Of a stretch of 64,000 bases of DNA, positions 10,164 through 39,555 are shown piece after piece. The notes beneath the pieces are model-generated. The model was given only the letters and a program-made list of their open reading frames with translations. It was not told where the DNA came from and ran no database searches. The DNA lies in the IMG/VR virus record IMGVR_UViG_3300047472_000248, positions 52,315-116,314 of that record. The stretch is one strand, 5' to 3'. Numbering within the stretch: the stretch's first letter is position 1; every line of letters starts with the position of its first letter. Source of the stretch: a virus. Its lineage: Duplodnaviria > Heunggongvirae > Uroviricota > Caudoviricetes. A program made the position numbers and the translations under genes.

Positions 10164-10169
10164 GCTCTC

Positions 10170-10410: not shown

Positions 10411-10414
10411 GGGC

Positions 10415-10447
10415 ATAAAAAAGGCGCCCACGAGGGGCGCCACTGAG
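10415..10447 (-). terminator. intrinsic terminator downstream of the HTH regulator gene
   Basis: GGCGCCCCTCGTGGGCGCC hairpin followed by TTTTTTAT on the minus strand. Confidence 0.55.
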
Positions 10448-10467
10448 GGGAAGGGGTGGCCTGGAGC

Positions 10468-11451: not shown

Positions 11452-11536
11452 CGCATCGGCTGCTGTTGCAGCCCCGCCCCGAATCCGAGGGGCAATTTTT
11501 AGAGTTCGTTCATTGCAGCGAACGAAGGGGAGCGCG

Positions 11537-22121: not shown

Positions 22122-22152
22122 CGCCGAGCCTACGGGCTCGGCATTTTTCTCT
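22122..22152 (+). terminator. intrinsic terminator
   Basis: GCCGAGCCTACGGGCTCGGC hairpin followed by ATTTTTCTC. Confidence 0.6.
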
Positions 22153-23135: not shown

Positions 23136-23157
23136 CACCACCATCTGAAAGACAATC

Positions 23158-24201
23158 ATGACTCTCGACGCAGCCGCACTCGCGGCACTCTCCGCAGGTC
23201 TGGAAGACCTGCAAAGCGAAAGCGGAGAAGTTCTCGAGCCGAAGTTCTGGCTCGACCTGGGCTACGCGCCGATCAACAAGATCCTCAGCGGGGACTACAC
23301 CCGCGGGTTCCCCTACGGCCGCATGATCGAGATCGCCGGGCCGTCTGCCACGGGCAAGACCCTGATCGCTACCCTGGCGATGATCGTCGCACAGCGCGCC
23401 GGCGGTATCGCGATCTTCGTGGACTGGGAGCGCAGTTTCAACAAGACGTTCGCCGAGCAGCTGGGCCTCAATACGGCGTTCCCCTACTTCATGTATGACC
23501 GGGCGAAGACCTGGGAGTCCGGCAACACGTTCGCGATGCAGATCGCCGAGCGGGTGCGCGAGAAGAAGCTGATCGCGCCCGAGGCACCGATCGTCGCAGT
23601 GCTCGACTCGATCGCCGCTGCGGTGCCCAAGTCCGTGATGTTCGATGCCAAGGGCAACAAGCGCGGCATCGAAGAGCTGTCCATGAACGACACGACGGCG
23701 CTCGCCCGCATCACCAGCACGACGCTCAAGTCCGTCAACCAGTATGTCGGCGACTTCGACATGACGGCGATCTACCTCAACCAGATCCGCACCAAGCCGG
23801 GCGTGGCCTATGGTGACCCGCGCACCACCCCGGGCGGCGGTTCGATGGAGTTCTATGCCTCGCAGCGCCTCTTCACGGGCCGCAAGAAGATCATGGAAGG
23901 CACGGGCTCGGACAAGGAATTTAAGGGCTCCTTGATCGGCCTGGAGACGGTGAAGAACAAGCTCACCCGTCCATTTCAGGAAACCAACCTGCGCCTGATG
24001 TATGACGGCGAGGAAGGCAAGGGCATCGCCAAGTTCGACTTCACGCAGGGGATGATCGAGCACCTGGTGGAGCAGAGGGCGCTCCCGATGGACGGCAAGA
24101 TGATCGTCTTCGAGGGAAAGAAATACTACGCGGGCGTGCTCGCAAAGAAGATCGACGCCGAAGGCAAATACCCCGCACTCGTGGAGATGCTGCCAGTTTA
24201 A
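23158..24201 (+). CDS. RecA/UvsX-family recombinase
   Basis: GRMIEIAGPSATGKT Walker A in RecA-core context; 347 aa. Confidence 0.7.
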   Translation: MTLDAAALAALSAGLEDLQSESGEVLEPKFWLDLGYAPINKILSGDYTRGFPYGRMIEIAGPSATGKTLIATLAMIVAQRAGGIAIFVDWERSFNKTFAEQLGLNTAFPYFMYDRAKTWESGNTFAMQIAERVREKKLIAPEAPIVAVLDSIAAAVPKSVMFDAKGNKRGIEELSMNDTTALARITSTTLKSVNQYVGDFDMTAIYLNQIRTKPGVAYGDPRTTPGGGSMEFYASQRLFTGRKKIMEGTGSDKEFKGSLIGLETVKNKLTRPFQETNLRLMYDGEEGKGIAKFDFTQGMIEHLVEQRALPMDGKMIVFEGKKYYAGVLAKKIDAEGKYPALVEMLPV

Positions 24202-24234
24202 GTCGACGGGGCTGCTGCTGACTATCATGAATCG

Positions 24235-24579
24235 ATGATGCAGCAGCTTAAGTTCTCCTATCCACGTCGCGGCCTAGTCGGGAGCTTCAACACCTTCAGG
24301 CTCGGGCTCGCGCCCTCCCGCAATCTGAAGCCCGGCGAGCAAGTGGAGCTCGTCGCAGCCCGAACGGGCAAGCACCTGGGCTATGCCACGGTGCAGTCGC
24401 TGCACACCGGGTCGCTCGACACGATGGCATCGGCGCACGCAGCGCTCGCCCACAACTGGAAGGACCACCCAGCCGAGCAACGCGCGGAGCTGTTGAAGGG
24501 GTCCATGAAAAAGCGATACCCGCCTGGCCGCTGTGCTGATGATTCAGCGGTCACGGTCATTTATCTGGAGGCTTCATGA
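24235..24579 (+). CDS. hypothetical protein
   Basis: 114 aa; TATCAT -10-like element upstream. Confidence 0.4.
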   Translation: MMQQLKFSYPRRGLVGSFNTFRLGLAPSRNLKPGEQVELVAARTGKHLGYATVQSLHTGSLDTMASAHAALAHNWKDHPAEQRAELLKGSMKKRYPPGRCADDSAVTVIYLEAS

Positions 24580-24863
24580 ACGTCTACCGCATCACCTACC
24601 CCGAGTCGTTGGTGGCGGCTTCCCCCGACACTTGGAGACCCGTCTTCCGAGCGACGAAAGAGGCAGCGCACGTCACGGCAAAAGAGACGGTGAACGCTGC
24701 CTACTGGACTGACGTCTACATCGACGAGCTGGCGGTGGAAGCTGACAAGGGGGCGCTCATCACGGCATTGAATGGCTGCGGCATGTCGAACCCGAAAGTC
24801 CTCAAGTCCTGGACGCTCACCGAGCGTGGAGGCATGCACGAGTGCGAGAGGGCCGAAGCGTGA
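24576..24863 (+). CDS. hypothetical protein
   Basis: 95 aa; ATGA overlap. Confidence 0.4.
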   Translation: MNVYRITYPESLVAASPDTWRPVFRATKEAAHVTAKETVNAAYWTDVYIDELAVEADKGALITALNGCGMSNPKVLKSWTLTERGGMHECERAEA

Positions 24864-25039
24864 GCGCCCCCGACGACGAATCGATCGGCGAAAAGGACGC
24901 CTGGAATCGGGGCTACATGGCGGCCTCGCACGGCCGCAGCGAGACGAGCAACCCCTACGACGTGAACTCCGACCAGCACCTGTCGTGGAACGACGGCTAC
25001 CAGGCGTGGGTGGACGAGAACGAGGGGACCGACGAATGA
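24860..25039 (+). CDS. hypothetical small protein
   Basis: GTGA overlap start; 59 aa. Confidence 0.3.
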   Translation: MSAPDDESIGEKDAWNRGYMAASHGRSETSNPYDVNSDQHLSWNDGYQAWVDENEGTDE

Positions 25040-25398
25040 AGACGATCATCGCCGGCAGCCGCGAGATCATGGACTACGCGACCGTGCGTGACGTGGTCAA
25101 CGATCTGGTTTGGAATCGTGCCTGGGATATCACCGAAGTCGTCAGTGGTGGTGCCAAGGGCGTCGACCAGATGGGCGAGACGTGGGCCAACCGCAACCAC
25201 GTGCCGATCAAGCAGTTCATTCCCGACTGGAACGGCTACGCGGGCATGCGTGCCGGCCTTGTGCGCAACTCCAAGATGGCCGACTATGCCGACGCATTGA
25301 TCGCGATCTGGAACGGTCACAGCACTGGCACAGAGCATATGATTCGCGTCGCTCGCGAGCGTGGCCTGAAGGTGCACGTCGAGATCGTCAATGGCTGA
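25036..25398 (+). CDS. Rossmann-like (SLOG/DUF2493-like) nucleotide-binding protein
   Basis: IIAGSR...VVSGGAKGVD pattern; ATGA overlap; 120 aa. Confidence 0.4.
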   Translation: MKTIIAGSREIMDYATVRDVVNDLVWNRAWDITEVVSGGAKGVDQMGETWANRNHVPIKQFIPDWNGYAGMRAGLVRNSKMADYADALIAIWNGHSTGTEHMIRVARERGLKVHVEIVNG

Positions 25399-25870
25399 CA
25401 CCAAGATCGGCGAGGCCAAGCCCGACCCCTCGGGGCTGTGGACGTCCCGGGTGGTCCGCCGCGATCGCAAGTTCTACGGCGAGATTCGCAGCTACAAGCG
25501 GGTCAAGCTGGCCGTCTACTGGGCGCACCGCCGCACCGACGAGGAGTTCAGGGAGCTGGAGGCCTGGGCGGTCGATGTCGACACGATCGCCGCCTTGAAG
25601 TCCTACGCGGTGACGCACGTCGGCATCCTGGTCGAAGACGGCCGCCGCTACCTCGCGCCAATCAGTCTCTTCGGCCCCGCGGGCAAGGACGTGGGCGTGC
25701 AGGTGCTCGACTACTCCAAAGCGAAGGGCAGGGCACCCGGGGCGAAGGGTAAGTTCGGCGCGCTGCAGTATTACGTGCCGATCGCGCTGTTCAAGGCGCA
25801 CATCCCACCCATCGAGACGCGCGAAGAGACGCTCTTGGAGCGCATGCGTATTTCTGCTCGAAAGAGGTAG
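25391..25870 (+). CDS. hypothetical protein
   Basis: 159 aa. Confidence 0.45.
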   Translation: MADTKIGEAKPDPSGLWTSRVVRRDRKFYGEIRSYKRVKLAVYWAHRRTDEEFRELEAWAVDVDTIAALKSYAVTHVGILVEDGRRYLAPISLFGPAGKDVGVQVLDYSKAKGRAPGAKGKFGALQYYVPIALFKAHIPPIETREETLLERMRISARKR

Positions 25871-27394: not shown

Positions 27395-27420
27395 GTCAGG
27401 GCTGACTCGCTACCTATAAT
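27394..27420 (+). promoter_or_regulatory. GTAAGTCAGGGCTGACT + 7 nt + TATAAT
   Basis: after the SleB-like gene stop. Confidence 0.55.
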
Positions 27421-27428
27421 CGACACAT

Positions 27429-27454
27429 GCGGGGCGACTGCCCCGCGCTTTTAT
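27429..27454 (+). terminator. promoter-proximal terminator-like hairpin
   Basis: GCGGGGC-GACT-GCCCCGC then GCTTTTAT; 9 nt after TATAAT, 13 nt before ATG 27467. Confidence 0.5.
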
Positions 27455-27466
27455 CGGGGAGGGCTT

Positions 27467-28612
27467 ATGAAGCCAGCATACGGTCTCGCGGCAGACCTCC
27501 ATTTCCATAACTGGTCTGCGTTCTCGACGGTGAACCTCGACGGGTTGAACAGCCGTCTCGCGGGCCAGATCGAAGAGCTCCACCGCCTGTGCGCCGAGAC
27601 GCGTGCCGCCGGTGGCCAGATCGTGGTGCTCGCGGGCGACATCTTCCACGTGCGGGGCTCGGTGGCACCCTCGGTGCTCAACCCTGTGCGTGATGCCATC
27701 TTGCACGAGGTCGGCGCCAACCTGATGCAGTTCTACATCCTGGCCGGCAACCACGACCTGGAAGGCAAAGAGGCGACCCGCATCGGAAGCGCCGTCACCG
27801 CGCTTGAGATGGACGGCGTGGTCGTCATCAACGAGCCTGAATACGTCGAATATATCGGCGGCGGTGCCTACTTGGTGCCCTGGCATGAAAAGATCGACGA
27901 CCTGAAGAAGGCCATCGAGTTCGGGACGCGCAGCTGGGAGCGCGAGGACACCGACCTGATCCTGCACGCCCCGATCGACGGCGTGATCGAAGGCCTTCCG
28001 CCGCACGGGCTGACGCCGGAATACCTGGCCGGCCTGGGCTTCAAGCGCGTGTTCTCGGGCCACTACCACAACCACAAGACGTGGAAGTTTGAGCGCCCGT
28101 GTGTGATCAAGGGCACGCCCGGCTTTGGCACGACCCTGACGCAGGTGACAAGCATCGGCGCCCTGTCGCATCACAGCTGGTCGGACATCGGCAGCAAGGC
28201 GGGCTTCGTGCTCGTGCACCCCGACCGCATCGACTGGCGCAAGTCGCACCTGCCGGCCTTCATCGACCTGGGCGAGCTCGTCGAGGTGGAAGAGGACGAC
28301 CTCTTCCAGGCCGTCGACGGGAACTACGTCCGGGTGAGGGTCGAGGGCAGCAAGGTCGCCGAGATGAAGGCGGTCGTCGAAGACCTGAAGGGTCTGGGCG
28401 CCCGGGGCGTGATCGTTCAACCGACCCCCGCGGCTCCCGTGCGTGAGCGTGCAGATGGGACCGCGCTGAGCGCCAGCGTCGCAGCGGGGGCGTCGATCGA
28501 AGCATCGGTCGGCGACTTCATCAAGACGGCGAAGCTGGTCGCGGCCGAAGCGCTGGTGACGGCCGCGGCGATGAACGTGCTCGAAGCCGCCGCAGAACTG
28601 GAGACCGAATGA
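27467..28612 (+). CDS. sbcD: SbcD/Mre11-like nuclease (T4 gp47-like)
   Basis: phosphoesterase motifs DLHFHNW, LAGDIFH, GNHD. Confidence 0.8.
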   Translation: MKPAYGLAADLHFHNWSAFSTVNLDGLNSRLAGQIEELHRLCAETRAAGGQIVVLAGDIFHVRGSVAPSVLNPVRDAILHEVGANLMQFYILAGNHDLEGKEATRIGSAVTALEMDGVVVINEPEYVEYIGGGAYLVPWHEKIDDLKKAIEFGTRSWEREDTDLILHAPIDGVIEGLPPHGLTPEYLAGLGFKRVFSGHYHNHKTWKFERPCVIKGTPGFGTTLTQVTSIGALSHHSWSDIGSKAGFVLVHPDRIDWRKSHLPAFIDLGELVEVEEDDLFQAVDGNYVRVRVEGSKVAEMKAVVEDLKGLGARGVIVQPTPAAPVRERADGTALSASVAAGASIEASVGDFIKTAKLVAAEALVTAAAMNVLEAAAELETE

Positions 28613-30552
28613 AGATCTACTCGCTATCCATCGACAACTTCCTCACGATCGGGAACGCCTGTCTGCAGCTCGCGAGCAAGGGCTTGAACCTGATCGACGG
28701 CGTCAACGACGAAGACAGCTCGGCCACCAGCAACGGGGCGGGCAAGTCCAGCGTCGTCGATGCGCTCTGCTGGTGCCTGCACGGGGTGACGGCACGCGGC
28801 GCGAAGGGAGACGCGATCGTCAACAACGTGGCCAAGAAGGGCACGTGCGTTCAGATTCAAATGGGCGACGAGGTCGTGATCTATCGGGTCACCCGCTACC
28901 GCAAGCATCCGGAGCACAAGAACCAACTTCGCATCGAAATGCGAGCGGTCGGCACGAGTAACTGGGCGGACCTCAGCAAGGGCACCGAGGCGGAGACGCA
29001 GAAGGTCGTCGACCAGGCGCTCGGGTGCACCTACGAGGTCTTCGTGGCGGCCGTCTACGCAGGCCAGGAGAAGATGCCCGACCTGCCCAACATGACCGAC
29101 GCAGAGCTGAAGCGCACGATCGAAGAAGCAGCCGGCATGCGGCGCCTGGAGCGGGCGTTCGAGATCGCCAAGAGCCGGCGCACCGCCGCTGTCGGGGCGC
29201 ACAGCACCGCCGAAGACAAGCTGACCGTGCTGCAAGCCCGCAAGCTGCGGATCGAAACCGACCTCGTCGATGTCGAAGCCCGGATGACTGCCTGGGCCGA
29301 CGGCCGCAAGACAATGATCGATTCGGCAGGACTGATTGTCGAGGTCACGCACGAAAAGCTGCGCACTGCGCGCGTCGCTGTCGGTGCGTGGGACCCGACC
29401 CGCATCGAGCTCGAGGAGCAGAAGGCCAAGATCGACGTCGAGCTGGCCGAACACAGCAAGAAGGCCGCGGCCGTCAAGGCGGCGAGCGATGCTGCCGCGG
29501 CCGCCGACCGGGCGATCGATCGGGCGAAACTGTCGACTGCCACCAGCGCGGTCGCTTCGCTCCAGAAGGACCTCGACAACGCGCCGGCGGCCATGGCCAA
29601 GCCCTGCGGGGAGTGCGGCAAGGCACACACCGCCGACGAGCTGGAGACGTTCACCGCGCACCTGAAAAAGCGGCTCTCGGACGCGCAGCTGACGCTCGGC
29701 TTCATCAAGATCGCCGTCACCGAGCAGGCCAAGACCGCGGTCGCCGCCAAGAAGGCCGCCGAGAAGGCCGCCAGCGAGCTTCCGGACGTGTCGACCCTGG
29801 CCGCTACCCGCCGCGAGCTGGAGAAGCGCCTGGGGCGCACGGCAGAGCTTGCTGCGGCCGTCGAACGCACGATGAAGGACCATGAGGCCGCCAAGGTCAC
29901 GCTCGCGCACCGCAAGGCCGAGCCGAACCCCGATGCCTCGCTGCACGCGACGCTCACGAAGCAGCTGGCCGAGATCGCATCGGAGCTGGGCGGGGCACAG
30001 GCCAACGTCGACAAGCTGCTCGTCGAGCGCGAGGTTGCCGAAGACGTGGTGAAGGTCTTCGGGCCCGCCGGCGTGCGCGCGCAGATCCTCGACACCGTCA
30101 CGCCCTACCTGAACACCCGCACGGCGCACTACCTCTCGGCGCTAAGCGACGGGAACATGGTCGCCACCTGGACGACGCTCACGAAGAACGCCAAGGGTGA
30201 GCTGCGGGAGAAGTTCTCCATCGAGGTGGAGCTCAAGACCGGCGGCGACTCGTTCACGCTGCTGTCGGGCGGGGAGAAGCGCAAGGCACGCCTCGCGTGT
30301 GCCCTCGCGCTGCAGGACCTGGTGGCATCCCGGGCGGCCAAGCCGATCGAGCTCTGGATCGGTGACGAGATAGACGCAGCGCTCGACCCGGCCGGCCTCG
30401 AGCGCCTGATGGGCCTGCTGGAGCTGAAAGCGCGTGACCACGGCACCGTCATCGTCATCTCGCACAACGACATGAAGGACTGGATCGATCGAACGACGAC
30501 CGTGACGAAGGGGACCGATGGCATCTCGACGGTCGCGGGGGCGATGGTATGA
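28609..30552 (+). CDS. sbcC: SbcC/Rad50-like ATPase (T4 gp46-like)
   Basis: Walker A GAGKSS; zinc hook CGECGK in coiled coil; signature LSGGEKRKARLA; Walker B LWIGDEID. Confidence 0.8.
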   Translation: MKIYSLSIDNFLTIGNACLQLASKGLNLIDGVNDEDSSATSNGAGKSSVVDALCWCLHGVTARGAKGDAIVNNVAKKGTCVQIQMGDEVVIYRVTRYRKHPEHKNQLRIEMRAVGTSNWADLSKGTEAETQKVVDQALGCTYEVFVAAVYAGQEKMPDLPNMTDAELKRTIEEAAGMRRLERAFEIAKSRRTAAVGAHSTAEDKLTVLQARKLRIETDLVDVEARMTAWADGRKTMIDSAGLIVEVTHEKLRTARVAVGAWDPTRIELEEQKAKIDVELAEHSKKAAAVKAASDAAAAADRAIDRAKLSTATSAVASLQKDLDNAPAAMAKPCGECGKAHTADELETFTAHLKKRLSDAQLTLGFIKIAVTEQAKTAVAAKKAAEKAASELPDVSTLAATRRELEKRLGRTAELAAAVERTMKDHEAAKVTLAHRKAEPNPDASLHATLTKQLAEIASELGGAQANVDKLLVEREVAEDVVKVFGPAGVRAQILDTVTPYLNTRTAHYLSALSDGNMVATWTTLTKNAKGELREKFSIEVELKTGGDSFTLLSGGEKRKARLACALALQDLVASRAAKPIELWIGDEIDAALDPAGLERLMGLLELKARDHGTVIVISHNDMKDWIDRTTTVTKGTDGISTVAGAMV

Positions 30553-31070
30553 ACGACACCGAGATCGCCCGGGTGCTCGGGATCGGCGACATCAATCCGG
30601 CCGAATGGCAGTGGATGCAGGAGAAGGTCGCGCGACTCGTCAGTGGCCACATTGCAGAGGGCGACAAGTGCCTCGTGACGGTGAGCGGGCCGCGCAAGCT
30701 GCCCTGCACATTGCGCGCTGGCAAGGCAGCGCATGTCGGCATGCCTGTAGCAGTCCCCTTCATGGGTGGCGAACAACTGCTTGTCCAGTCGGTCTTCCAT
30801 CACATCGCTCGCGACACGGTCTTCGTCAGCCTGTCCGCTGCGTGCGCTCGTCTCGCCCGACAGAACGTCAAATCTGTGGACCTGAACTTCGTCGAGGCTT
30901 GCGCCATCTTGGAGGGCTTCGACGCCTGGGTGGCGAAGATCATCGAGCAAACGCCCGGTGCTGCCGATCGCATAACGGGGCGTGAAGAAATGCGCAGGCT
31001 GGAAGAGGCTGCAGAACAACGCGAGCGCGAGTATGAAGCCACGCGCCCGGCACTTTGGGGGACCTGGTAA
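30549..31070 (+). CDS. hypothetical protein
   Basis: 173 aa; ATGA overlap. Confidence 0.45.
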   Translation: MNDTEIARVLGIGDINPAEWQWMQEKVARLVSGHIAEGDKCLVTVSGPRKLPCTLRAGKAAHVGMPVAVPFMGGEQLLVQSVFHHIARDTVFVSLSAACARLARQNVKSVDLNFVEACAILEGFDAWVAKIIEQTPGAADRITGREEMRRLEEAAEQREREYEATRPALWGTW

Positions 31071-31759
31071 TGGACTGGCTAATGGACGACGACCACCGCA
31101 TGCTCGGGCCGGTCGTCAACTCGATCAACCGCCTCTGCAGAAGCGAGCCGATCCCGGTGCAGTTCTATGCGCCGTCGGTGATCTTGCGGGTTGAAGAAAC
31201 AACGGCAGACGAGAACATCGCCGGGACGTTCACCCACGAGGGCCCGGCCTACCCGGTGCTGGTGGGCGCACAGGACTACCCCAGGCCGATGCTCTTCTTC
31301 CGGAAGTTCACCCCTGCCACGGGCAAGGTGAGTGGCGGCAATCGCTACTACATGCCGATGCGCGAGGCATGCGACCAGGTGGTGGGCCTGAGGGGCGCGC
31401 TGGAGGCCATGCTCGGTGTGCCGATCCCATCGAGCGAACTGCCCCGCACATTCGGGCCGCCGGACCCGCCCAAGCAGCCGCCGGAGCCGCTGTGGGAGAG
31501 GTATCCGTTCACGCCATCTGTATTGGTAGGGGCGTCCTGGGTGCCATTGCCACCACCGCCTGCCGCGCCTGTTCCTCCGCCACCCGCCCCGAACCCCGTG
31601 CCTGAGAACCCCTTCGAACCGGAGCCAGGGCCAGAGACGACAGTGGAAGTGCCGGACCTTCCCATCATCAAGGACCAGCCTGCCGAACTCGACGACGACC
31701 TGCTGCACGAGATCGCCGATGCCGCCGACATCCACCCCGAGGGGTGGGGCGCCTGGTGA
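31070..31759 (+). CDS. hypothetical Pro-rich protein
   Basis: TAATG overlap; PPPAAPVPPPPAPNPVP stretch. Confidence 0.45.
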   Translation: MDWLMDDDHRMLGPVVNSINRLCRSEPIPVQFYAPSVILRVEETTADENIAGTFTHEGPAYPVLVGAQDYPRPMLFFRKFTPATGKVSGGNRYYMPMREACDQVVGLRGALEAMLGVPIPSSELPRTFGPPDPPKQPPEPLWERYPFTPSVLVGASWVPLPPPPAAPVPPPPAPNPVPENPFEPEPGPETTVEVPDLPIIKDQPAELDDDLLHEIADAADIHPEGWGAW

Positions 31760-31772
31760 AACCCAAAATCTG

Positions 31773-31817
31773 GCGCCGAGAAAAGTCCGTGCGCCCAAAT
31801 ATGTAACAAGGAAACCC
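31773..31817 (+). promoter_or_regulatory. conserved 45-nt leader element, copy 1
   Basis: GGCGCCGAGAAAAGTCCG...CCCAAATATGTAACAAGGAAACCC immediately before ATG; near-identical to 37691-37736. Confidence 0.5.
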
Positions 31818-32396
31818 ATGAACCCCACCGTCACCATCGTCGGCATCGACCCGAGCTTTCGCAACACCGGGCTGGCACGCGCCAGCTACGACCTCGTGAC
31901 CGGCGAGTGGCAGGTCACGCACCTGCTGCTGTCCGAGACCGAGAAGGGCAAGGCCAAGCTCGTCCGAAAGTCCAGCGACGACCTCTCGCGCTGCAAGATT
32001 CAGCACGACGCCGTCGTCGCCTTCTGCAAGGACGCGCACTTCGCGGTCGCCGAAGTCCCGAGCGGGGCGCAGAGCGCTGCCGCAGCCTTCAGCAACGGGG
32101 TCTGCTGCGCGGTGCTTGCCGCGGTGCCGTGCCCCCTGATCGAGGTCAACCCCACCGAGGTCAAGCTGGCGAGCGTGGGCGACAAGTGGGCCGCGAAGGA
32201 GCAGATGATCGAATGGGCCGTCGCGCGCTTCCCCAAGGCCGGCTGGCTCACCCGTAAGCTGAAGGGCAACGTCGAGCTGGTCGCCAAGAACGAGCACCTG
32301 GCCGACGCCTGTGCCGCGATCGCCGCCGGCCTCAAGACCCAGCAGTTCCTGCAGTCGACCGCGATGCTGAAGGCCGCCATGAGGATTGCTGCCTAA
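31818..32396 (+). CDS. RuvC-like Holliday junction resolvase
   Basis: N-terminal IVGIDPSFRNTGLA (cf. RuvC ILGIDPGSRVTGYG); acidic catalytic residues spaced as in RNase H-like fold. Confidence 0.55.
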   Translation: MNPTVTIVGIDPSFRNTGLARASYDLVTGEWQVTHLLLSETEKGKAKLVRKSSDDLSRCKIQHDAVVAFCKDAHFAVAEVPSGAQSAAAAFSNGVCCAVLAAVPCPLIEVNPTEVKLASVGDKWAAKEQMIEWAVARFPKAGWLTRKLKGNVELVAKNEHLADACAAIAAGLKTQQFLQSTAMLKAAMRIAA

Positions 32397-32415
32397 AAGT
32401 TCGCCTTACATGGTA

Positions 32416-32429
32416 AGTCAGGCCTGACT
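32416..32429. promoter_or_regulatory. AGTCAGGCCTGACT palindrome
   Basis: family member preceded by GTA; no clear TATAAT. Confidence 0.5.
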
Positions 32430-32479
32430 GACGTAGCATCGCTGCCCCTTTCCGATCGATAACAACAGGAGTTCCCTGA

Positions 32480-34819
32480 ATGCATTCCTCATGGGACACG
32501 CCGGCGCGTGTCTACGCCCCGGGCATCGGTGACGCCGTCGCCGACCGCACCGTCAACCGCAAGCTCGACCCCACCACCCGCCAAGAACTCCCGGCCTGGA
32601 CCGAGAAGGGCGCCGACCCGCGCCCGTTCGCCCGTGAAGTCTGGGCAGACGTCGCCAAGCGCGTCGCCCTGGGAAACACCGGCCTGCGCGACCAGGACGC
32701 CCCGTTCGAGTTCGAACCGCTGCACCACCACCTGCGCCAGGCATCGCTGCTGATGTCGGGCCGCCACCTGCAGCACGGCGACCTGCACCAGTCGACCCGC
32801 AACCAGGAAGTCTTCACGAACTGCAGCACGGCCGCCGCCAGCTTCCTCGAGTTCTACCTGCTGCTCAACGGCTCGGGCGTCGGCCGCAGCTACGACGACG
32901 CGATGATGCTCGTCGACTGGCGCAAGATGCCCAAGGTGCGCGCGTGCCTGCGCCCCGACCATCCGGACGTGGTGAGCGGCGAGATCGCCGACCCGAACGA
33001 CGAAAGCTACGGCGACTACGTGCACATGCACGTGATGCATGTCGAAGACAGCCGCGAGGGCTGGGCGAAGGCGGTCGAGAAGATCGAGTTCATGACCTGG
33101 CTCGGCGTGCACCGCGACGACGTGCTGCTGATCGACTTCTCGGATGTGCGCCCCCGCGGCGCCCCGATCGGTGGCATGCAGAACCGGCCGGCCAGTGGCC
33201 CGGGCCCGCTGATCGAAGCGATCCGCAAAACCGCCAAGCTGCGCGACGCCGGCATGGAGCCCTGGGAGGCCACCATGCACGCCGACCACTACTACGCCGA
33301 GTGCGTGCTGGTGGGCGGGGCGCGCCGGGCTGCCCGCATGGCGACGAAGAGCTGGCGCGACAAGAGCGTGCTGCGCTTCATCGACATCAAGAAGGGCGGG
33401 GTGCTCTGGAGCTCCAACAACTCCATCACGGTCGACGAGGAGTTCTGGGAGGGCGTGCGCAACGTGAAGCGCTTCGTCGATGCGGGTCACACGCGCATTG
33501 TGGCGACCGACCTCGAGTGGCATGCCTTCAAGGTCTTCCAGGCTACCACCAAAGCCTCCTACTTCCACAAGACCGGCGAGCCCGGCTTCATCAACGTCGA
33601 CAAGCTGACGCAGAAGAACGAAGGCGTCGAGATGCTGTTCGACGGCCAGTTCGCGGGCAGCAAGCGCTTCCAGCTCGAACCCGAGACGGAGATGCTGACG
33701 ATGGCGCTGGCATCGGTCTTCGCCAAGCTGCCGTTCTCGATGATCGTGAACCCGTGCGGCGAGATCCCGCTGTCACTGCTGGGCGGCTACTGCGTGATCG
33801 CGGACACCGTGCCCTACCACGCACAGCCGGTTTGGGGTCCTAGTTGGCGCAGCACCGAGCAGTGGCATGCAGCATGGGATCACGAGGCAGAGGCAGCCTT
33901 CCGCACGGGCGCCCGTGCGCTGATCCGCACCAACACGATGGACTGCCTCTACCACAAGGAAGTCCAGCGCACGAACCGCATCGGCGTGGGCTTCACGGGC
34001 ATCTTCGAATACGCCTGGGCCCGCTTCGGCTTCGGGTGGAAGGACCTGGTGGATGAGCAGCGCTCGCTTGCCTTCTGGCAGACGATGTCCCGCTTCAGCA
34101 ACGCCGCCGTCGACGAGGCACGCAGCTACTCGGCCAAGCTGGGCGTGGCGATGCCGCACACCGTCACGACTGTGAAGCCGGCCGGCACGACCAGCAAGCT
34201 CTTCGGACTGACCGAGGGGGCGCACCTGCCGAGCATGCGCAAGTATCTCCGCTGGGTGCAGTTCCGCAACGACGACCCGCTGATCGAGCAATACGCTGCC
34301 AAGGGCTACCCGATCAAGCGTCTGAAGACCTATAGCGGCACGACCGTGGTGGGCTTCCCGACGGTGCCGGAGATCTGCAAGCTGGGCATGGGTGACGCGC
34401 TCGTGACGGCAGGGGAGGCAACGCCTGAAGAGCAATACGAGTGGCTCCGGCTGCTCGAGAAGTATTGGCTTAACGGCTACGAAGACACCGTGCGCGGCGG
34501 AGACATCTGCGTGGGTGGCCACGGCTGTGCCGGCCAGGTCAGCTACACGCTGAAATACAAGCCGGAGCTGGTGAGCTTCGAGGACTTCCAGCGCACGCTG
34601 CTGGAGGGCCAGTCGTCCATCAAGTGCTGCTCGGTGATGCCGCAGACGGACACCTCCGCCTACGAGTATCAGCCCGAAGAGCCGATCAGCGACGAGGACT
34701 TCGACGCCTTGGTCGCACGGATCAACGATCCCGAGATGAAGCAGAGCATCGGTTTCGAGCACGTGGACTGCGCGTCGGGTGCCTGCCCTATCGACTTCTT
34801 GGGCAGCGAAGCCGCGTAA
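32480..34819 (+). CDS. nrdJ: ribonucleotide reductase, class II (adenosylcobalamin-dependent, NrdJ-like)
   Basis: 779 aa single chain; active-site MIVNPCGEIPL motif; C-terminal Cys pair. Confidence 0.75.
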   Translation: MHSSWDTPARVYAPGIGDAVADRTVNRKLDPTTRQELPAWTEKGADPRPFAREVWADVAKRVALGNTGLRDQDAPFEFEPLHHHLRQASLLMSGRHLQHGDLHQSTRNQEVFTNCSTAAASFLEFYLLLNGSGVGRSYDDAMMLVDWRKMPKVRACLRPDHPDVVSGEIADPNDESYGDYVHMHVMHVEDSREGWAKAVEKIEFMTWLGVHRDDVLLIDFSDVRPRGAPIGGMQNRPASGPGPLIEAIRKTAKLRDAGMEPWEATMHADHYYAECVLVGGARRAARMATKSWRDKSVLRFIDIKKGGVLWSSNNSITVDEEFWEGVRNVKRFVDAGHTRIVATDLEWHAFKVFQATTKASYFHKTGEPGFINVDKLTQKNEGVEMLFDGQFAGSKRFQLEPETEMLTMALASVFAKLPFSMIVNPCGEIPLSLLGGYCVIADTVPYHAQPVWGPSWRSTEQWHAAWDHEAEAAFRTGARALIRTNTMDCLYHKEVQRTNRIGVGFTGIFEYAWARFGFGWKDLVDEQRSLAFWQTMSRFSNAAVDEARSYSAKLGVAMPHTVTTVKPAGTTSKLFGLTEGAHLPSMRKYLRWVQFRNDDPLIEQYAAKGYPIKRLKTYSGTTVVGFPTVPEICKLGMGDALVTAGEATPEEQYEWLRLLEKYWLNGYEDTVRGGDICVGGHGCAGQVSYTLKYKPELVSFEDFQRTLLEGQSSIKCCSVMPQTDTSAYEYQPEEPISDEDFDALVARINDPEMKQSIGFEHVDCASGACPIDFLGSEAA

Positions 34820-34849
34820 TAAATCACGCAGCCAGCGGGAGGGGCTCAC

Positions 34850-34874
34850 TATAATGAGTAAGTCAGCCCTGACT
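34850..34874 (+). promoter_or_regulatory. TATAAT followed by AGTCAGCCCTGACT palindrome
   Basis: CACTATAATGAGTAAGTCAGCCCTGACTG. Confidence 0.55.
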
Positions 34875-34976
34875 GTTGATCAAATCGACTGGCCAGAGCC
34901 GGCGCTTCCACCGATCAATCTGTGGAATGCGCCCGCCCTGGTCACAAGGTCACCATCATTTTTGAAGGAGAAACCC

Positions 34977-35429
34977 ATGACCAAGACCAGCTACACCGCC
35001 GACGTGCGCCCCGCGAAGGGCTACGTCGCGCTCGACGGCGTCACCTACGAGACGCAGAAGGCCGCGATCACCGCGAGCCACGACTTCAAGGTCATGGCGG
35101 CCCTGAAGGACTTCGCGGCAGCATGCCCGAGCTTCGACGGCACCGAGCCGAAGGACGGCGCGACGTTCGACGACCGTGACAACCCGGTGCTCTACCAGGA
35201 CGGTCTGGCGACGTTCATCTTCGTGCATCGCAACGCCATCCTCGCCGCTCTGAAGCAGGAAGTCTCGCTGCGCAAGCCTTACGCCCGCAAGCCGAAGACG
35301 CCGGCGGCGCCCGGCCTGCGCGGTGCCGTGCTCACCCAGGGCGACGCCGATGCCGACCTCGCGGGCACCCCGCGGCCGAACAACGCGACCGTCAGCCTGA
35401 AGGGCACCGATCTGCCGATCGCGGCCTGA
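34977..35429 (+). CDS. hypothetical protein
   Basis: 150 aa; RBS GAAGGAGAAACCC. Confidence 0.5.
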   Translation: MTKTSYTADVRPAKGYVALDGVTYETQKAAITASHDFKVMAALKDFAAACPSFDGTEPKDGATFDDRDNPVLYQDGLATFIFVHRNAILAALKQEVSLRKPYARKPKTPAAPGLRGAVLTQGDADADLAGTPRPNNATVSLKGTDLPIAA

Positions 35430-35628
35430 CCGATCAACGGCGCAGTCGCAAGCGAAAACAAGTAGTGATCCCAGGCACTGATAAGGCCTGGGCGAGTGAA
35501 CGGAAGTAGCTGGGCGAGGCTAATCAGACACGCGCGATGCACACGGACCTCTGGTTCAAGTCCGCTCTCTCGCATGTGATCGCCGTCGGATCGTTCCCGA
35601 CCTGCGTCTCCACCCTTCCGGAGGTTCG

Positions 35629-35820
35629 ATGTTCAAGCTCGTCCTGATCGCAGCGCTGGTCTTCGCCTTCGCCTGTTGGTTCATCAACATCGCTCGCAAG
35701 CGCGAGCGGAAGGTGGTTACCACAACGCTGCGCAAGGGCCTCATCCCGCTCGTGATCGGCATCGTCACCCTGTGCGTGCTGATCGCGGTTCTTCTTCTCC
35801 CTTCCATCAAGGTGATCTGA
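35629..35820 (+). CDS. small two-TM membrane protein (possible NfeD-like partner of the SPFH protein)
   Basis: 63 aa, two hydrophobic helices; RBS GGAGG. Confidence 0.45.
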   Translation: MFKLVLIAALVFAFACWFINIARKRERKVVTTTLRKGLIPLVIGIVTLCVLIAVLLLPSIKVI

Positions 35821-35823
35821 CCC

Positions 35824-36663
35824 ATGAAAAGACTCTTCTCCCTGTTCCTGATCGCGTCGTTCGCGCTGCTTGCGGGCTGCACCCGCATCGACAGCGGCAA
35901 CATCGGCATCGACAACACCCTCGGCCAGGTCAAGAGCGAAACGCTCAGCTCCGGCTACTACAGCACGGTCTTCAAGAACGTCCTCGAGATCAGCGGCAAG
36001 CAGACGCACATCGCCTTCGACGGGCTCAAGCCCAAGTCGAAGGACAACATCACGATGGACGACTTCGACGCCGACATCTACTACTCGATCAACTCGTCCG
36101 ACGCCCCCAAGATCCTGACACGCTTCGCCGGTGACATGCAGGCACAGCACGTGCCGGACGGCCAGCACGACGACGGCTCGATGCTGATCGGCAGCAACTT
36201 CGTCAAGCGAATGGCGCGCAGCGCGATCTTCGACGTGGCACAGGGGCACAACGCGGCCGACATGAACGCAGCCCGCAACGACATCGAGAAGGCGATCGCA
36301 ACGCAGCTGCAGGCAATGCTCGACGAGCACGCCGGCAAGGGGTGGTTCAAGGACGTCAACGTCACCGTGCGCAGCATCGTCCCGGACCGCAACCTGCAGG
36401 AACAGATGCGCCTGAACGCCGACCGCACCTTCAAGCTGGCCGCCAAACAGAAGGAGATCGAGCTTGCCAATGCCGAAGCGCAGCGCCTGGCAGCCGAAGC
36501 CCAGGGCGTCGCGAAGGCCAACGAGATCATCAGCGCGTCGCTGACGCCGCAGCTGCTCCGCATGCGTGAGATCGAGACGCAGGCCAAGTTTGCCAGCGCG
36601 GGCACCCACACCGTGATCATGGGCGGCAGTGGCGCAGTCCCGCTCGTCCAGGTCAGCAAGTAA
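35824..36663 (+). CDS. SPFH/band-7 family lipoprotein
   Basis: signal peptide with lipobox LLAGC; SPFH core plus coiled-coil AEAQRLAAEAQGVAKANEII. Confidence 0.6.
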   Translation: MKRLFSLFLIASFALLAGCTRIDSGNIGIDNTLGQVKSETLSSGYYSTVFKNVLEISGKQTHIAFDGLKPKSKDNITMDDFDADIYYSINSSDAPKILTRFAGDMQAQHVPDGQHDDGSMLIGSNFVKRMARSAIFDVAQGHNAADMNAARNDIEKAIATQLQAMLDEHAGKGWFKDVNVTVRSIVPDRNLQEQMRLNADRTFKLAAKQKEIELANAEAQRLAAEAQGVAKANEIISASLTPQLLRMREIETQAKFASAGTHTVIMGGSGAVPLVQVSK

Positions 36664-36750
36664 CCAGCGTCGGGAGACGTCAGAGGCCCGGGAGGGCTTC
36701 CGCATGGGACCCCACAGCCCAAGCGAAAACCTTCCCCAAAGGAGACACAC

Positions 36751-37671
36751 ATGACCACGCAGATCAGCGCCAAGGTCATCGCCGACAGCATCAGCGGCGA
36801 CGACATGCGGCTCACAACCCTCCAGCTCTGCTACCCGCGCTTCATCCACGCAGAAGCGAAGACCCACCGCATTCTGAGCGCGGACTCGGAGCAGGTCGTC
36901 GTGCACACCGGCTCGGCCGGGTTCATGGACGACCCGATGCTGTCGCGCAACGCATCCTCGAGCCGGGCGATCCCAGTCGCGAAGATGATCGAGCAGGTGC
37001 GCAACGACCCGGCGATGCCGGTGCACTGGGGTAAGAACGTCGCCGGCATGCAGGCGCGGGAAGAGCTCACCGGCGACGCGCTCGATGCTGTCAGGTCCTT
37101 GTGGCTTGCAGCTGCGCGTGGTGCGGCAGACCTCGCCGAAAGGATGATGCGACTGGGCGGCCACAAACAGGTCGTCAACCGCATCCTGGAGCCCTTTCAG
37201 TGGATGCACGTCATCGTGACAGCCACCGAGTGGGACAACTTCTTCGAGCTGCGCGACCACGAAGACGCCGAGCCCAACATCCAGGTGCTCGCGCGCTGCA
37301 TGAAAGAGGCGAGGGCGGCATCGACGCCGATCAAGCGCTACGCCAGCGAGGACGGGCGGTGGGAGTCGTCGTGGCACCTGCCCTACGTGGCCGACGCGGA
37401 GCGCGAGCTGTATCGTCTCGACGTGCTGCGCAAGGCATCGGTCGCCCGCTGCGCCCGGGTGTCCTTCCTGAATCACGACGGCACTTACCCGGTGATCGCC
37501 AAAGACGTCGACCTCTACGACCGCCTGGTCGGCGCCCGGCCGCTGCATGCGAGCCCCACCGAGCACGTCGCGATGGCGCTGAAGCACAAAGGCTTCGTCA
37601 AGAACCTTCGCGGCTGGGAGCAGCACCGCGTCGCGGTCGAGAAGATCCACGCACCGAGCGTCTTCGCCTGA
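36751..37671 (+). CDS. flavin-dependent thymidylate synthase ThyX-like protein
   Basis: ThyX-like segments (ATEWDNFFELR cf. NxRxxxHFxxLR); the RHR-x-S signature is degenerate (THRILS). Confidence 0.4.
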   Translation: MTTQISAKVIADSISGDDMRLTTLQLCYPRFIHAEAKTHRILSADSEQVVVHTGSAGFMDDPMLSRNASSSRAIPVAKMIEQVRNDPAMPVHWGKNVAGMQAREELTGDALDAVRSLWLAAARGAADLAERMMRLGGHKQVVNRILEPFQWMHVIVTATEWDNFFELRDHEDAEPNIQVLARCMKEARAASTPIKRYASEDGRWESSWHLPYVADAERELYRLDVLRKASVARCARVSFLNHDGTYPVIAKDVDLYDRLVGARPLHASPTEHVAMALKHKGFVKNLRGWEQHRVAVEKIHAPSVFA

Positions 37672-37690
37672 TTTTCAAAACCGGCATTTC

Positions 37691-37736
37691 GGCGCCGACG
37701 AAAGACCGATTCCCCAAATATGTAACAAGGACACGA
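37691..37736 (+). promoter_or_regulatory. conserved 45-nt leader element, copy 2
   Basis: GGCGCCGACGAAAGACCG...CCCCAAATATGTAACAAGGACACGA immediately before ATG. Confidence 0.5.
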
Positions 37737-38396
37737 ATGGACTTCCAGACCTTCCAACCGCTCGCCTGCGCCACCGAGTCCGTGCCGGCCGAGATTCCCG
37801 ACCACGTCGACTTCTCCGTGGTCCTGGGCGTGCTGAACGGCATCGTGGCGCTCTCCAAGGCCTGCAGCACGCTGCACCGGGCGATCTACTACTCGTCCCC
37901 GGAAAAGACCGTGGCGGTCGATTACGACGCCCTCGAGCGCGCCGGGATCAAGCTGCCCCCTGCGTGCCCCTCGCAGTTCGTGCCCGAGCGGATCGACCTG
38001 CGCGTGCTGCACTGCGTCGTCGGCAAGGCCGCCGAGACGGGCGAACTGGCCGAGCTGGTGCTGCGCGCAGCCTTCGGAGAGGGCTTCGACAAGCACGAGT
38101 TCAAGAAGGAGCTCGGCGACGGCCGCTGGTATGACGCCATCGGCCTGGACGCGGTCGGCTGCAACGACGAGGGCCCGATCCTCGACGCGATCATCGAGAA
38201 GCTGCGCAAGCGCTACGGCGACAAGTTCGACGGGCTTGCGGCCGTCAATCGCGACACCCGCGTCGAGGACATCGCCGCGTGGGCCGCAATGGAGCGGCAG
38301 AACCACACCCTGCAGACTCAGGTGCGGTCGCTGCCGGCGACGGACCGCGAAGTGCGCGAGGTCAGCATCGAAGAGCTGAAGGCGGACCTGGCGTGA
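37737..38396 (+). CDS. hypothetical protein
   Basis: 220 aa; start directly after leader element. Confidence 0.5.
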   Translation: MDFQTFQPLACATESVPAEIPDHVDFSVVLGVLNGIVALSKACSTLHRAIYYSSPEKTVAVDYDALERAGIKLPPACPSQFVPERIDLRVLHCVVGKAAETGELAELVLRAAFGEGFDKHEFKKELGDGRWYDAIGLDAVGCNDEGPILDAIIEKLRKRYGDKFDGLAAVNRDTRVEDIAAWAAMERQNHTLQTQVRSLPATDREVREVSIEELKADLA

Positions 38397-39034
38397 TCAC
38401 GCTCGCGGGTAGCCACAGAACAGGGAAGACGACGCTCGCGCACGCCTTTGCCCAGGCGCAGGGCATCCCCTTCCTGCGCACGTCTGCTGTCGAGGCTTTC
38501 AGAGCGATGGGGAAGGACCCGAAGGTCCAATACCCCATCGAAGAGCGCTTTGCCATCCAGAAGGCGCTGCTGCACGTATTCGTCAAGCAATACGTCTCGG
38601 CGCAGCAGAGCGCCGGCACGAGCGGGCTTTTCATCACCGACCGGTCGCCGCTCGACCTGGCGGCCTACATGCTCGCCGACATGAACCGCGGCACCGCCGA
38701 CAGCGGGATGGGGCAGGCAGTCAAGGACTTCGTCGGCGAGTGCATCGACGCGACGAATCGCTTCTTCTCGCTCGTGATGGTCGTCCAGCCTGGCATCCCG
38801 GTGACGGAAGAGGAGGGTAAGGCGCCCACCTGCCCCGGCTACATGGAGCACCTCAACACGCTCATGCTCGGACTGCTGCTCGACCCTCGGCTTGCGAGCG
38901 CGCACTACTACATCCCGCGGGCCTACGTCGCGCTGGAGACGCGCCTGCAGGCGACCTACAACGTGGTGCGCTCGCTTATGGAAGCGCAGGTCGAGGCAAC
39001 CCGCACATATCGGGGGGCGAAAGCCTTACACTGA
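38393..39034 (+). CDS. P-loop NTPase, predicted nucleotide kinase
   Basis: Walker A GSHRTGKTT near N-terminus; GTGA overlap start. Confidence 0.45.
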   Translation: MITLAGSHRTGKTTLAHAFAQAQGIPFLRTSAVEAFRAMGKDPKVQYPIEERFAIQKALLHVFVKQYVSAQQSAGTSGLFITDRSPLDLAAYMLADMNRGTADSGMGQAVKDFVGECIDATNRFFSLVMVVQPGIPVTEEEGKAPTCPGYMEHLNTLMLGLLLDPRLASAHYYIPRAYVALETRLQATYNVVRSLMEAQVEATRTYRGAKALH

Positions 39035-39036
39035 TC

Positions 39037-39055
39037 AGTCAGCCCTGACTATAAT
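39037..39055 (+). promoter_or_regulatory. AGTCAGCCCTGACTATAAT palindrome/-10 unit
   Basis: GATCAGTCAGCCCTGACTATAATGGG directly after the kinase stop. Confidence 0.6.
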
Positions 39056-39076
39056 GGGCACAGCTAGAACGACACC

Positions 39077-39105
39077 GAGACACCCGAAAAGGTGTCTCCT
39101 TTTTA
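39077..39105 (+). terminator. promoter-proximal intrinsic terminator / attenuator
   Basis: GAGACACC-CGAAAA-GGTGTCTC 8-bp stem then CTTTTTAT; followed by mini-ORF ATG GTC GCT GAC GGT TAG (39105-39122). Confidence 0.6.
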
Positions 39106-39120
39106 TGGTCGCTGACGGTT

Positions 39121-39134
39121 AGTCAGCCCTGACT
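39121..39134. promoter_or_regulatory. AGTCAGCCCTGACT palindrome abutting RBS TAGGAG
   Basis: same 20-mer AGTCAGCCCTGACTTAGGAG as at 11239. Confidence 0.55.
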
Positions 39135-39144
39135 TAGGAGCACG

Positions 39145-39555
39145 ATGGACGCAGTGCCGAGCCCACGTGAAGAACTCGAACGCAAGGCGGTCGAGACACT
39201 CGAGGACATCGAGTGGCGCCGGCAGCAGGGCACCTTGAGCGGCGATGCCGCGGCCGCTGCAGCGCGGGCGATCTACCACGTGACCAGCGGGCTCGTGGAC
39301 TACTCGGTGACCGAGCTGGTGCAGGCGGTCGAAGCCCAGGCAAGCCCGATCATGAAGCGCCACTTCCTCGAACGCGCCACCGGCACCTCGGTCGTCATCG
39401 GCTGGAACCGCACGCGCCAGGTCTTCGGGATTGTGAAGCGCCAGGTCGGGCAAGACCCCAAGGTCAACCGCATCGAGTGCGGCGAAGAACCCCCGCCCGA
39501 GAAGATCGCCAAGGTCGTCAAGGCCCTGACCGCCAAGGGCTACATCGAAATCTGA
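39145..39555 (+). CDS. hypothetical protein
   Basis: 136 aa; RBS TAGGAG. Confidence 0.5.
   Translation: MDAVPSPREELERKAVETLEDIEWRRQQGTLSGDAAAAAARAIYHVTSGLVDYSVTELVQAVEAQASPIMKRHFLERATGTSVVIGWNRTRQVFGIVKRQVGQDPKVNRIECGEEPPPEKIAKVVKALTAKGYIEI

Follow-up and report, generated by a model that had tools for sequence, protein, structure and literature searches.

Why should a phage place a consensus promoter box so close to a terminator-like hairpin that the transcript of the gene behind it would have to pass the hairpin within its first turns of synthesis? The question is raised by two intergenic sites in an uncultured tailed virus (Caudoviricetes; IMG/VR record IMGVR_UViG_3300047472_000248), one in front of a gene for an SbcD-like protein (27395–27466) and the other in front of an orphan gene that starts at position 39145 (39038–39144). 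We analysed positions 52,315 to 116,314 of this record (hereafter the window, whose numbering is used throughout), a 64-kb part of a 116-kb element; the window has 64% G + C and nearly all of its genes on the plus strand. A preliminary description of the window had pointed to promoter-like boxes whose transcripts meet a terminator-like hairpin, and this premise stands, with the hairpins falling within 30–55 nt. The answer that we tentatively prefer, while giving it somewhat less than an even chance, is that the hairpins are leaky terminators behind operator-controlled promoters, where they would both insulate the gene from upstream transcription and damp the output of its own promoter, and that at sbcD the stem may also cap the mRNA.

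At the sbcD site, a palindrome (GTCAGGGCTGAC, 27395–27406) directly follows the TAA codon of a cell-wall hydrolase gene and lies 8 nt before the −10 box TATAAT (27415–27420, plus strand), from which transcription is predicted to start at A27427. From about position +2 of the predicted transcript the sequence can form a hairpin, (U)GCGGGGC-GACU-GCCCCGC(G), in which 27428–27435 pair with 27440–27447 on the plus strand, leaving 7–8 nt between TATAAT and the stem. The hairpin is followed by CUUUUAU (27448–27454), the ribosome-binding site (RBS) GGGGAGGG (27456–27463, plus strand) and the sbcD start codon at 27467. Its predicted folding energy is −16.5 kcal/mol (z = −3.8 against dinucleotide shuffles). 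The succession of TATAAT, GC stem, U-run, RBS and SbcD-like gene given in the preliminary description is borne out by base-level reading. There is no promoter after the U-run, where only 12 nt are left before the ATG, and sbcD has no other promoter; its transcripts must therefore read through the hairpin.

Close nucleotide relatives of the element were not found (a megablast search against 50,697 phage records gave no match), so that relatives were compared by synteny and not by nucleotide alignment. All nine nearest relatives carry the sbcD module: L099 (SbcD 62% identical), L100, L101 and L019–L023 (50–55%). The order in these loci is palindrome, 4–8 nt, TATAAT (TACAAT in L023), 6–9 nt, GC-rich hairpin, 4–5 U, RBS and ATG, and the palindrome is syntenic in L099, L100, L101, L019, L020 and L022. 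An inserted HNH endonuclease gene separates sbcD from the module in L100 and has left the module intact. The stem sequence is different in each relative (GCGGGGAC, GCCCU, GCCCGGUC, CCCGCA, GCGCA, CCCGCG, GCCCCG and AUGCCC), and the spacer in front of it has kept its length although its sequence has diverged. Taken individually, the relatives' hairpins fold with z-scores of −1.7 to −4.6, which combine with that of the window to about −8.8 (Stouffer; nine sbcD-site z-scores). With MAFFT and RNAalifold, the stems of the nine sbcD-site sequences were out of register and no consensus pairs were obtained; since a hand-fitted alignment for pair counting would be circular, we avoided it and took per-sequence shuffle z-scores as the support for the hairpins.

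At the second site, the palindrome GTCAGCCCTGAC (39038–39049) abuts the −10 box TATAAT (39050–39055, plus strand; predicted start at ~A39062), an arrangement shared by the sites at 19970 and 21014 and by many relatives. A 15-nt A-rich leader precedes the hairpin GAGACACC-CGAAAA-GGUGUCUC, which begins 21 nt after TATAAT, has a 6-nt loop and pairs 39077–39084 with 39091–39098 on the plus strand (the 3′ arm at 39091–39098 is also read GGTGTCTC); the tail at 39099–39106 is CTTTTTAT as DNA and CUUUUUAU as RNA. The predicted energy is −13.4 kcal/mol (z = −3.7 against dinucleotide shuffles). There follow a five-codon open reading frame (ORF), ATG GTC GCT GAC GGT TAG (39105–39122, plus strand), whose ATG lies in the end of the U-run and has no RBS, a second copy of GTCAGCCCTGAC (39122–39133), the sequence TTAGGAG (39134–39140) and the start codon of the orphan gene at 39145. 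The promoter box, the 8-bp GC stem, the tail, the second palindrome, the RBS and the gene were all found base by base as first described. The second palindrome, which folds poorly as RNA (−4.4 kcal/mol, z −0.4), is a candidate operator in a roadblock position; the same layout of palindrome and TTAGGAG occurs at 11240.

The counterpart of this site is found in two relatives, L103 and L166, which share contigs with L020 and L019 and in which the N-terminus of the gene product resembles that encoded in the window. Both have the palindrome, TATAAT, 21 or 31 nt, a hairpin (with stems GGGGAGG/CCUCCCC or GGGAGGC/GCCUCCC), 6–7 U, the RBS and ATG. The segment 39107–39133 is missing from both, and their U-run runs directly into the RBS, so that the mini-ORF and the second palindrome represent an insertion specific to the window. 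This bears on the suggestion of attenuation through a leader peptide. The mini-ORF does exist, one base off the position implied for it; it begins in the U-run, past the hairpin, and has no counterpart in L103 or L166, and the sbcD site has no ORF at all. Moreover, leaders of 0–25 nt are too short to hold an alternative antiterminator fold. We therefore rejected attenuation via the mini-ORF, which is best regarded as a chance ORF.

The third site that had been proposed, at 1313–1358, fared differently. Its TATAAT (1312–1317, plus strand) and a one-mismatch palindrome (1292–1303) are present; its hairpin (~1330–1345) folds with z = +0.6, no better than 138 of 200 shuffled sequences, and L002, the one relative with the 1313 junction, has no hairpin there. 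On these two results we rejected the site as a hairpin module, and the check by fold prediction thus upheld two of the three hairpins (z −3.8 and −3.7). The tail TTTATSG, described as conserved among the three sites, also dissolved on comparison: the relatives have 4–7 T, an A and then a purine-rich RBS, and the apparent motif is the U-run meeting the ribosome-binding site.

Could it simply be fortuitous that AT-rich hexamers and hairpins lie side by side between the genes? Chance accounts for the third site and for the mini-ORF. As an explanation of the sites at 27415 and 39050, where it is refuted, it is hardly credible, given the excess of TATAAT (see below), the hairpin z-scores, the eleven syntenic positions and the order of the elements. 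That order emerged when a hairpin-plus-T-run finder was applied to the window and to ~165 loci of relatives, with duplicates removed. Among 203 gene-strand hairpins with ΔG ≤ −11 kcal/mol, TATAAT was found up to 60 nt upstream in 20 and downstream in none, compared with 0 upstream and 1 downstream for hairpins of the antisense strand; at a looser cut-off of −9, the counts were 22 upstream versus 3 downstream. The distance between TATAAT and the stem is either 0–12 nt or 18–38 nt, and in six cases from the family the stem starts only 0–3 nt after TATAAT. Wherever a terminator adjoins a consensus promoter in this family, it belongs to the transcript of that promoter, whereas the usual junction has the two in the opposite order. 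At the eleven homologous positions, the hairpins fold with z-scores from −1.7 to −4.8. A lack of the hairpins in relatives had been named beforehand as a refuting result; instead, they are kept in nine of nine relatives at the sbcD site and in two of two at the second site, with different stems.

The boxes themselves have the marks of genuine promoter-like elements. The window has 12 copies of TATAAT versus 0.9 expected (a 13-fold enrichment), all of them intergenic and 20–126 nt upstream of start codons. Eleven are on the plus strand, and the twelfth (11057–11052, minus strand) faces the only minus-strand gene block. A −35 hexamer TTGACA at a distance of 16–18 nt is generally missing, so that only two of the 12 boxes (21004 and 25868) pass a two-hexamer scan. 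The 40 TATAAT sites of the clade (i.e. those of the window and its nearest relatives) have a flank in common, cT(g/c)aC-TATAAT, in which position −13 is C at 37 sites and position −16 is T at 32; a position-by-position count over these 40 sites showed no conserved positions upstream of −17. These features characterize the boxes of the window as −10-only promoters of the sigma-70 type, as far as sequence can tell.

The short 'AGTCAG palindrome' mentioned in passing in the preliminary description is a dispersed element tied to every one of these promoters, a fact that had been missed there. Allowing up to one mismatch, the window has 22 copies of GTCAGNNCTGAC versus 3.1 expected, almost always intergenic and often extended to TAAGTCAGNNCTGACTTA. 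At each of the 40 clade TATAAT sites, the palindrome is located either 0–11 nt upstream or 2–10 nt downstream of the box. Further copies directly precede ribosome-binding sites (11240 and 39122) or flank the divergent promoters beside the gene for an HTH_31 (helix-turn-helix) regulator, which has two copies next to it. Across the family, the core of the element is GTCA-N4-TGAC; in the temperate-type Rhizobium phage RHEph10, which has a replication-protein block, it is AGTCAGTCAATATTGACTGACT. In Pseudomonas phage nickie (L189, 40000–89000), where no block of HTH, ParA and Rep genes is annotated between the ligase gene and cobT, the syntenic 49 kb contain neither an intergenic GTCA-N4-TGAC palindrome nor TATAAT, and the promoters of nickie must be of a different type.

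Two other roles for the palindrome were considered and rejected. Folded as RNA, two copies gave weak hairpins of −4.4 and −6.7 kcal/mol (z −0.4 and −1.9), which favours a DNA site; and as a −35 element or an activator site in a fixed position it does not fit, since anything between 0 and 11 nt may separate it from the −10 box and some copies lie downstream of the box. Its variable position, dyad symmetry and co-occurrence with a lysogeny module make a repressor operator the best reading, and the palindrome is probably the dispersed operator of the phage's own HTH_31 repressor. In L082, L083, L086 and L090 (~17570–17600) and in L120 (~3170), the half-sites GTCA...TGAC are changed to GTAA...TTAC (GTAAGCGCTTAC-TATAAT and GTAATTCGTTAC), which suggests that operator and repressor specificity co-evolve and that these phages belong to different immunity groups. 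Perfect palindromes also occur inside two predicted ORFs, at 1116–1127 (the 3′ end of the primase gene) and 14109–14120 (early in the cobS ORF); these may be internal operators or may reflect mis-set gene starts.

Is the hairpin a terminator at all? Both hairpins of the window are flagged by a consensus terminator scan, and the hairpins lie 35–45 nt behind co-directional genes. Measured against a U-tract of ~7–9 nt, the modules of the window, with CUUUUAU and CUUUUUAU, have 4–5 U beginning one base after the stem, and those of the relatives have 4–7 U after 1–3 other bases, which is compatible with a moderate or leaky terminator. The U-run always ends up 3–12 nt before the ribosome-binding site.

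That the hairpins are not complete stops follows from the absence of a promoter between the U-run and sbcD, and from the other terminators of the window. The 64 kb contain about six strong terminator-like hairpins, three of which lie no more than 25 nt downstream of a TATAAT. The others, at 11476, 22123 and 10443, all precede promoter-less essential genes. The hairpin at 22123–22150 (plus strand; −19 kcal/mol, z −5.0) follows the gp32-like gene and has no promoter nearby; the genes at 22170–25870, including those for the exonuclease and UvsX, have no TATAAT of their own, so that this terminator must be read through. The hairpin at 11476–11500 (plus strand) lies between an ORF in the cro position (11269–11451) and cobT (start at ~11537), and the terminator at 10443 (minus strand) between the HTH gene and parA. 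A possible third, weaker member of the module class points leftward from the 5′ untranslated region (UTR) of the HTH gene (11012–11074, minus strand): a degenerate palindrome (11063–11074) and TATAAT (11057–11052) are followed by the hairpin GGCCGC-CAA-GCGGUC (11026–11012; z −2.05) and AUUUAU.

On the reading that we prefer, each module would run from the stop codon of the preceding gene through a palindromic operator, a −10-only promoter, a terminator-like hairpin with its U-run and an RBS to the next gene. In the plasmid-prophage state, an HTH repressor bound to the palindrome would shut the promoter. The hairpin and U-run in the 5′ UTR would act as a real but leaky intrinsic terminator, which would end or thin out transcription arriving from the upstream operon and would also damp the output of the module's own consensus promoter. 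At sbcD, the mRNA that escapes termination would gain a protective stem-loop at its 5′ end.

Several points weigh against this reading. The start sites, termination and its efficiency, repressor binding and mRNA stability are all things that we infer from sequence. To have a promoter of perfect consensus just before a terminator would seem wasteful if that terminator were unconditional, which favours antitermination. U-runs of only 4–7 U, set 1–3 nt past the stem, could mean low termination efficiency. The role as a 5′ cap is inapplicable to the site at 39050, where the leader is 15–25 nt long (L103 and L166 included), and it fails in distant relatives, since a stem that starts 0–3 nt after TATAAT puts the transcription start inside its 5′ arm. 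Finally, the contrast with nickie in palindrome and repressor module comes from a single genome.

If the terminator is conditional, the modules could be switches. In this alternative, efficient default terminators keep sbcCD and the operon that starts at 39145 silent until a phage factor acts, as a timing switch; the factor might load at the promoter via the palindrome, as do lambda Q and AlpA, or might act generally, as does Xp10 p7. The resemblance in layout is close, since a DNA element by the −10 box, a promoter and a terminator within 30–55 nt are also the components of lambda PR′-tR′ and of PalpB-tB (PMC9371919). The order of promoter before terminator (20 to 0) points the same way, as does the position of all strong terminators of the window, which are internal and have essential genes behind them; one of them follows the cro-position ORF (11269–11493) in a manner that recalls lambda PR-cro-tR1. 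On the other hand, no member of the Q, N, AlpA or any other antiterminator family was detected in searches of PHROGs and Pfam that covered 56 unannotated ORFs of the window and 10 upstream ORFs, nor among the ORFs that had been annotated individually; these cover 64 kb of the 116-kb genome and 10 kb upstream, and such factors are small and divergent. Both Q and AlpA need a −10-like, sigma-dependent pause element in the initially transcribed region (PMC9371919), and no such element is conserved here: by inspection, a hexamer with A2 and T6 occurs in only two of the 12 leaders, those of L099 (GAGCAT) and L166 (AAGAAT). The palindrome, found 0–11 nt from the −10 box, also downstream of promoters and at RBSs without a promoter, is unlike a loading site, and RNA elements of the nut or put kind could not be accommodated in the 0–3-nt leader of sbcD. 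We consider factor-dependent antitermination possible but rather unlikely.

A combination of the two ideas is conceivable, in which the palindrome is the DNA handle of an antitermination or relay system that serves many promoters, each module being a checkpoint between operons. A factor that sits on GTCA-N4-TGAC next to each −10 box would be loaded onto the polymerase as it initiates; or else a polymerase coming from the upstream operon would displace the repressor from its site and then stop at the terminator. This proposal strikes us as improbable, though not negligibly so.

The hairpins might also work purely as RNA, without terminating anything, either as stabilizers of the 5′ UTR or as translation modules. 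The stem would then block decay that depends on the 5′ end, and the U-rich stretch would be a landing site for S1 or Hfq, possibly for an Hfq-like protein of the phage. For the sbcD site the idea has merit, since in each of the ten phages the stem and the predicted 5′ end are 0–3 nt apart (with the start assumed 7 nt after TATAAT) despite the divergence of the spacers, and the constant proximity of the U-run to the RBS would suit it as well. Hairpins that end in a U-rich tail are the classic modules bound by Hfq, and an Hfq-like protein is indeed encoded by the phage and its nearest relatives. This 110-aa protein (L190, 7414–7746, ~2.1–2.4 kb upstream of window position 1) matches the Pfam Hfq family with 30.2 bits (E 3.5e-7), and its gene, kept in L192, L193 and L194, has a promoter preceded by the palindrome; the phrase 'phage-encoded Hfq' was not found in the literature searched. 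The promoter of this gene itself consists of TATAAT, 8 nt and a hairpin, with a U-run that is absent in the phage of the window and present in L192.

A non-terminating role is nevertheless at odds with several observations. A GC-rich stem plus U-run behind co-directional genes is exactly the form of an intrinsic terminator. In two distant relatives, L107 and L114, a plain terminator directly follows the stop codon at the junction that corresponds to the second site, and no promoter precedes it. At the second site itself the leader is long and unpaired, and in the six cases of the family in which the stem begins 0–3 nt after TATAAT, the promoter's own transcript could not hold the whole stem. 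The suggestion of a 5′ stabilizing stem-loop thus survives for the sbcD site, with its 0–3 unpaired nucleotides in ten phages, and not for the site at 39050, with its leader of 15–25 nt; that the hairpins have no other function than this we regard as unlikely.

The presence of both a promoter and a terminator, together with the Hfq-like protein, also recalls the proposal that the sites are genes for small trans-acting RNAs, of ~28 nt at the sbcD site and ~45 nt at the 39050 site. There is a precedent in Shiga-toxin phages, in which a short RNA whose transcription terminates just past PR′ is reported to have its own function (PMC7547250). In the case at hand, the genes behind (sbcD and the one at 39145) have no other promoter, so that their expression requires read-through. 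The single-stranded 5′ tails show no conservation among the window, L103 and L166, and at the sbcD site the RNA would consist of a hairpin and nothing else. Even the best antisense matches within the window contain three mismatches, which is about what is expected by chance. No part of the window has an Rfam match at the gathering score, and permissive local scans gave only chance matches to SorY and mir-344 (E 0.36–0.45). With read-through obligatory, the tails unconserved and no target beyond chance, small RNAs as the main function of these sites are very unlikely.

How do the modules compare with known systems? With lambda PR′-tR′ (6S RNA)/Q and Pseudomonas PalpB-tB/AlpA, they share the DNA element by the −10 box, the strong promoter, the close terminator and the genes that depend on read-through. 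They differ from these systems in that no Q or AlpA homologue was found here, in that the pause element is not conserved, and in that the palindrome occurs at ~20 places, including sites without a promoter or without a terminator; unlike in lambda, many promoters are involved and not one late promoter, and the terminator comes at 30–55 nt versus +194. The C1 operators of the plasmid-prophage P1 and the stoperators of the Cluster A mycobacteriophages, to which PMC6550527 is devoted, are dispersed repressor sites, and they offer another parallel, a short site present ~20 times in the genome, at promoters and in transcribed intergenic spacers, and recognized by the phage's own repressor. However, the P1 and Cluster A sites are asymmetric (17 and 13 bp, respectively) and their proteins are unrelated to that of the window, whose site is a perfect palindrome of 12–18 bp with a predicted binding protein.

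Stabilizing 5′-terminal stem-loops of the ompA type require a stem close to the 5′ end. The sbcD hairpin, 0–3 nt from its predicted 5′ end, is similar in this respect to the stem-loop in the 5′ UTR of Escherichia coli ompA; it differs in having a U-run and the look of a terminator, the start sites are predicted ones, and the second site has a leader of 15–25 nt. Internal partial terminators, such as that of lambda PR-cro-tR1 or those behind strongly expressed genes like the one for gp32, are matched by the hairpins at 11476 and 22123, which lie inside co-directional arrays with needed genes behind them. Unlike these, both modules nest a promoter between the upstream stop codon and the terminator, which reverses the usual order.

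The genomic context of the modules is that of a temperate phage-plasmid, as concluded from the sole minus-strand block (7037–10977), which holds an HTH_31/XRE-type regulator, ParA and a TrfA-like replication initiator. The regulator (169 aa; 10468–10977, minus strand) heads this plasmid-maintenance block. At least nine copies of iteron-like repeats of 16–20 nt (CGTCACCGTTGNACTA and its complement) are found at 8370–9176, between the TrfA-like gene and a small gene downstream of parA, and are a candidate plasmid replication origin. Several direct repeats of 25–31 nt, built from GCTATGC/GCGATGC units, at 10170–10410 are a candidate centromere-like site for partition; they lie between the start of parA and the terminator behind the HTH gene. 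To the right of the divergent control region, the 60-aa ORF in the cro position (11269–11451), which has no family match, is preceded by TATAAT at 11192 and the palindrome at 11240 and followed by the terminator at 11476–11493, again recalling lambda PR-cro-tR1.

Other genes of the window encode a DnaE-type polymerase with a C-terminal domain of the uracil-DNA-glycosylase superfamily (UDG; 16560–19961), a gp32-like single-stranded DNA-binding protein, a 5′-3′ exonuclease, a UvsX/RecA-type recombinase, CobT, CobS, a class II ribonucleotide reductase, RtcB and an ATP-dependent ligase, as well as SbcD (27467–28612) and SbcC (28609–30552), both on the plus strand. In L100 (1–2420), the gene for the DnaE-type polymerase is cut in two by an HNH endonuclease gene. 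A ~59-aa ORF at ~24860–25039 matches the ribosome modulation factor (Pfam RMF, E 9.8e-7), which is unusual in a phage. No tRNA genes were found in the window. Directly after cobS there is a gene for a sigma-70-family protein (15083–15742; Sigma70_r2, 24.1 bits, just at the Pfam cut-off); in the same post-cobS position, RHEph10 has gp045, annotated as an RNA polymerase sigma factor. The segment from 40 to 64 kb of the window contains only one TATAAT, and the target of the sigma-70-family protein may be a later class of promoters that lack this box.

The SbcD of the window is on record in the 116,314-bp JGI contig and in the Logan run SRR26075506. The best protein matches among phage records, ~42% identical, come from Rhizobium phage RHEph10, Pseudomonas phage nickie, Stenotrophomonas phages and SSU5, and the closest SbcD among 5.8 billion proteins is 62% identical. 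Hundreds of uncultured SbcD relatives exist in metagenomes, some of them on contigs of ~110 kb, and plasmid-like contigs of 103–131 kb are found in a Chitinibacter genome, a Magnetospirillum genome and a betaproteobacterial metagenome-assembled genome. To our knowledge, there is no transcriptional study of this phage-plasmid family.

Promoters, intrinsic terminators, operators and 5′ hairpins are each of a known kind. What appears to be new is the consistent order of promoter and then terminator, its conservation with changed stems, and its coupling to a dispersed palindromic operator, none of which is described in the literature searched; that on SSU5, RHEph10, phage-plasmid operators and promoter-proximal terminators contains nothing on the motifs of this family. 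The modules are compact parts of ~70 nt that join operator, promoter, insulator and ribosome-binding site, the two in the window spanning 70–110 nt. They persist at syntenic junctions while the proteins around them diverge to 50% identity, and the terminator is therefore meant to sit in the promoter's own transcript. Either gene dosage in these phages is set by consensus promoters and leaky terminators that double as 5′ caps, or an unrecognized antitermination switch operates at several promoters. If the modules are checkpoints between operons, a large family of uncultured phage-plasmids would possess a genome-wide timing device, similar to Q/AlpA or of the relay type, which would possibly work together with the phage Hfq-like protein on RNAs that carry a hairpin and a U-rich tail.

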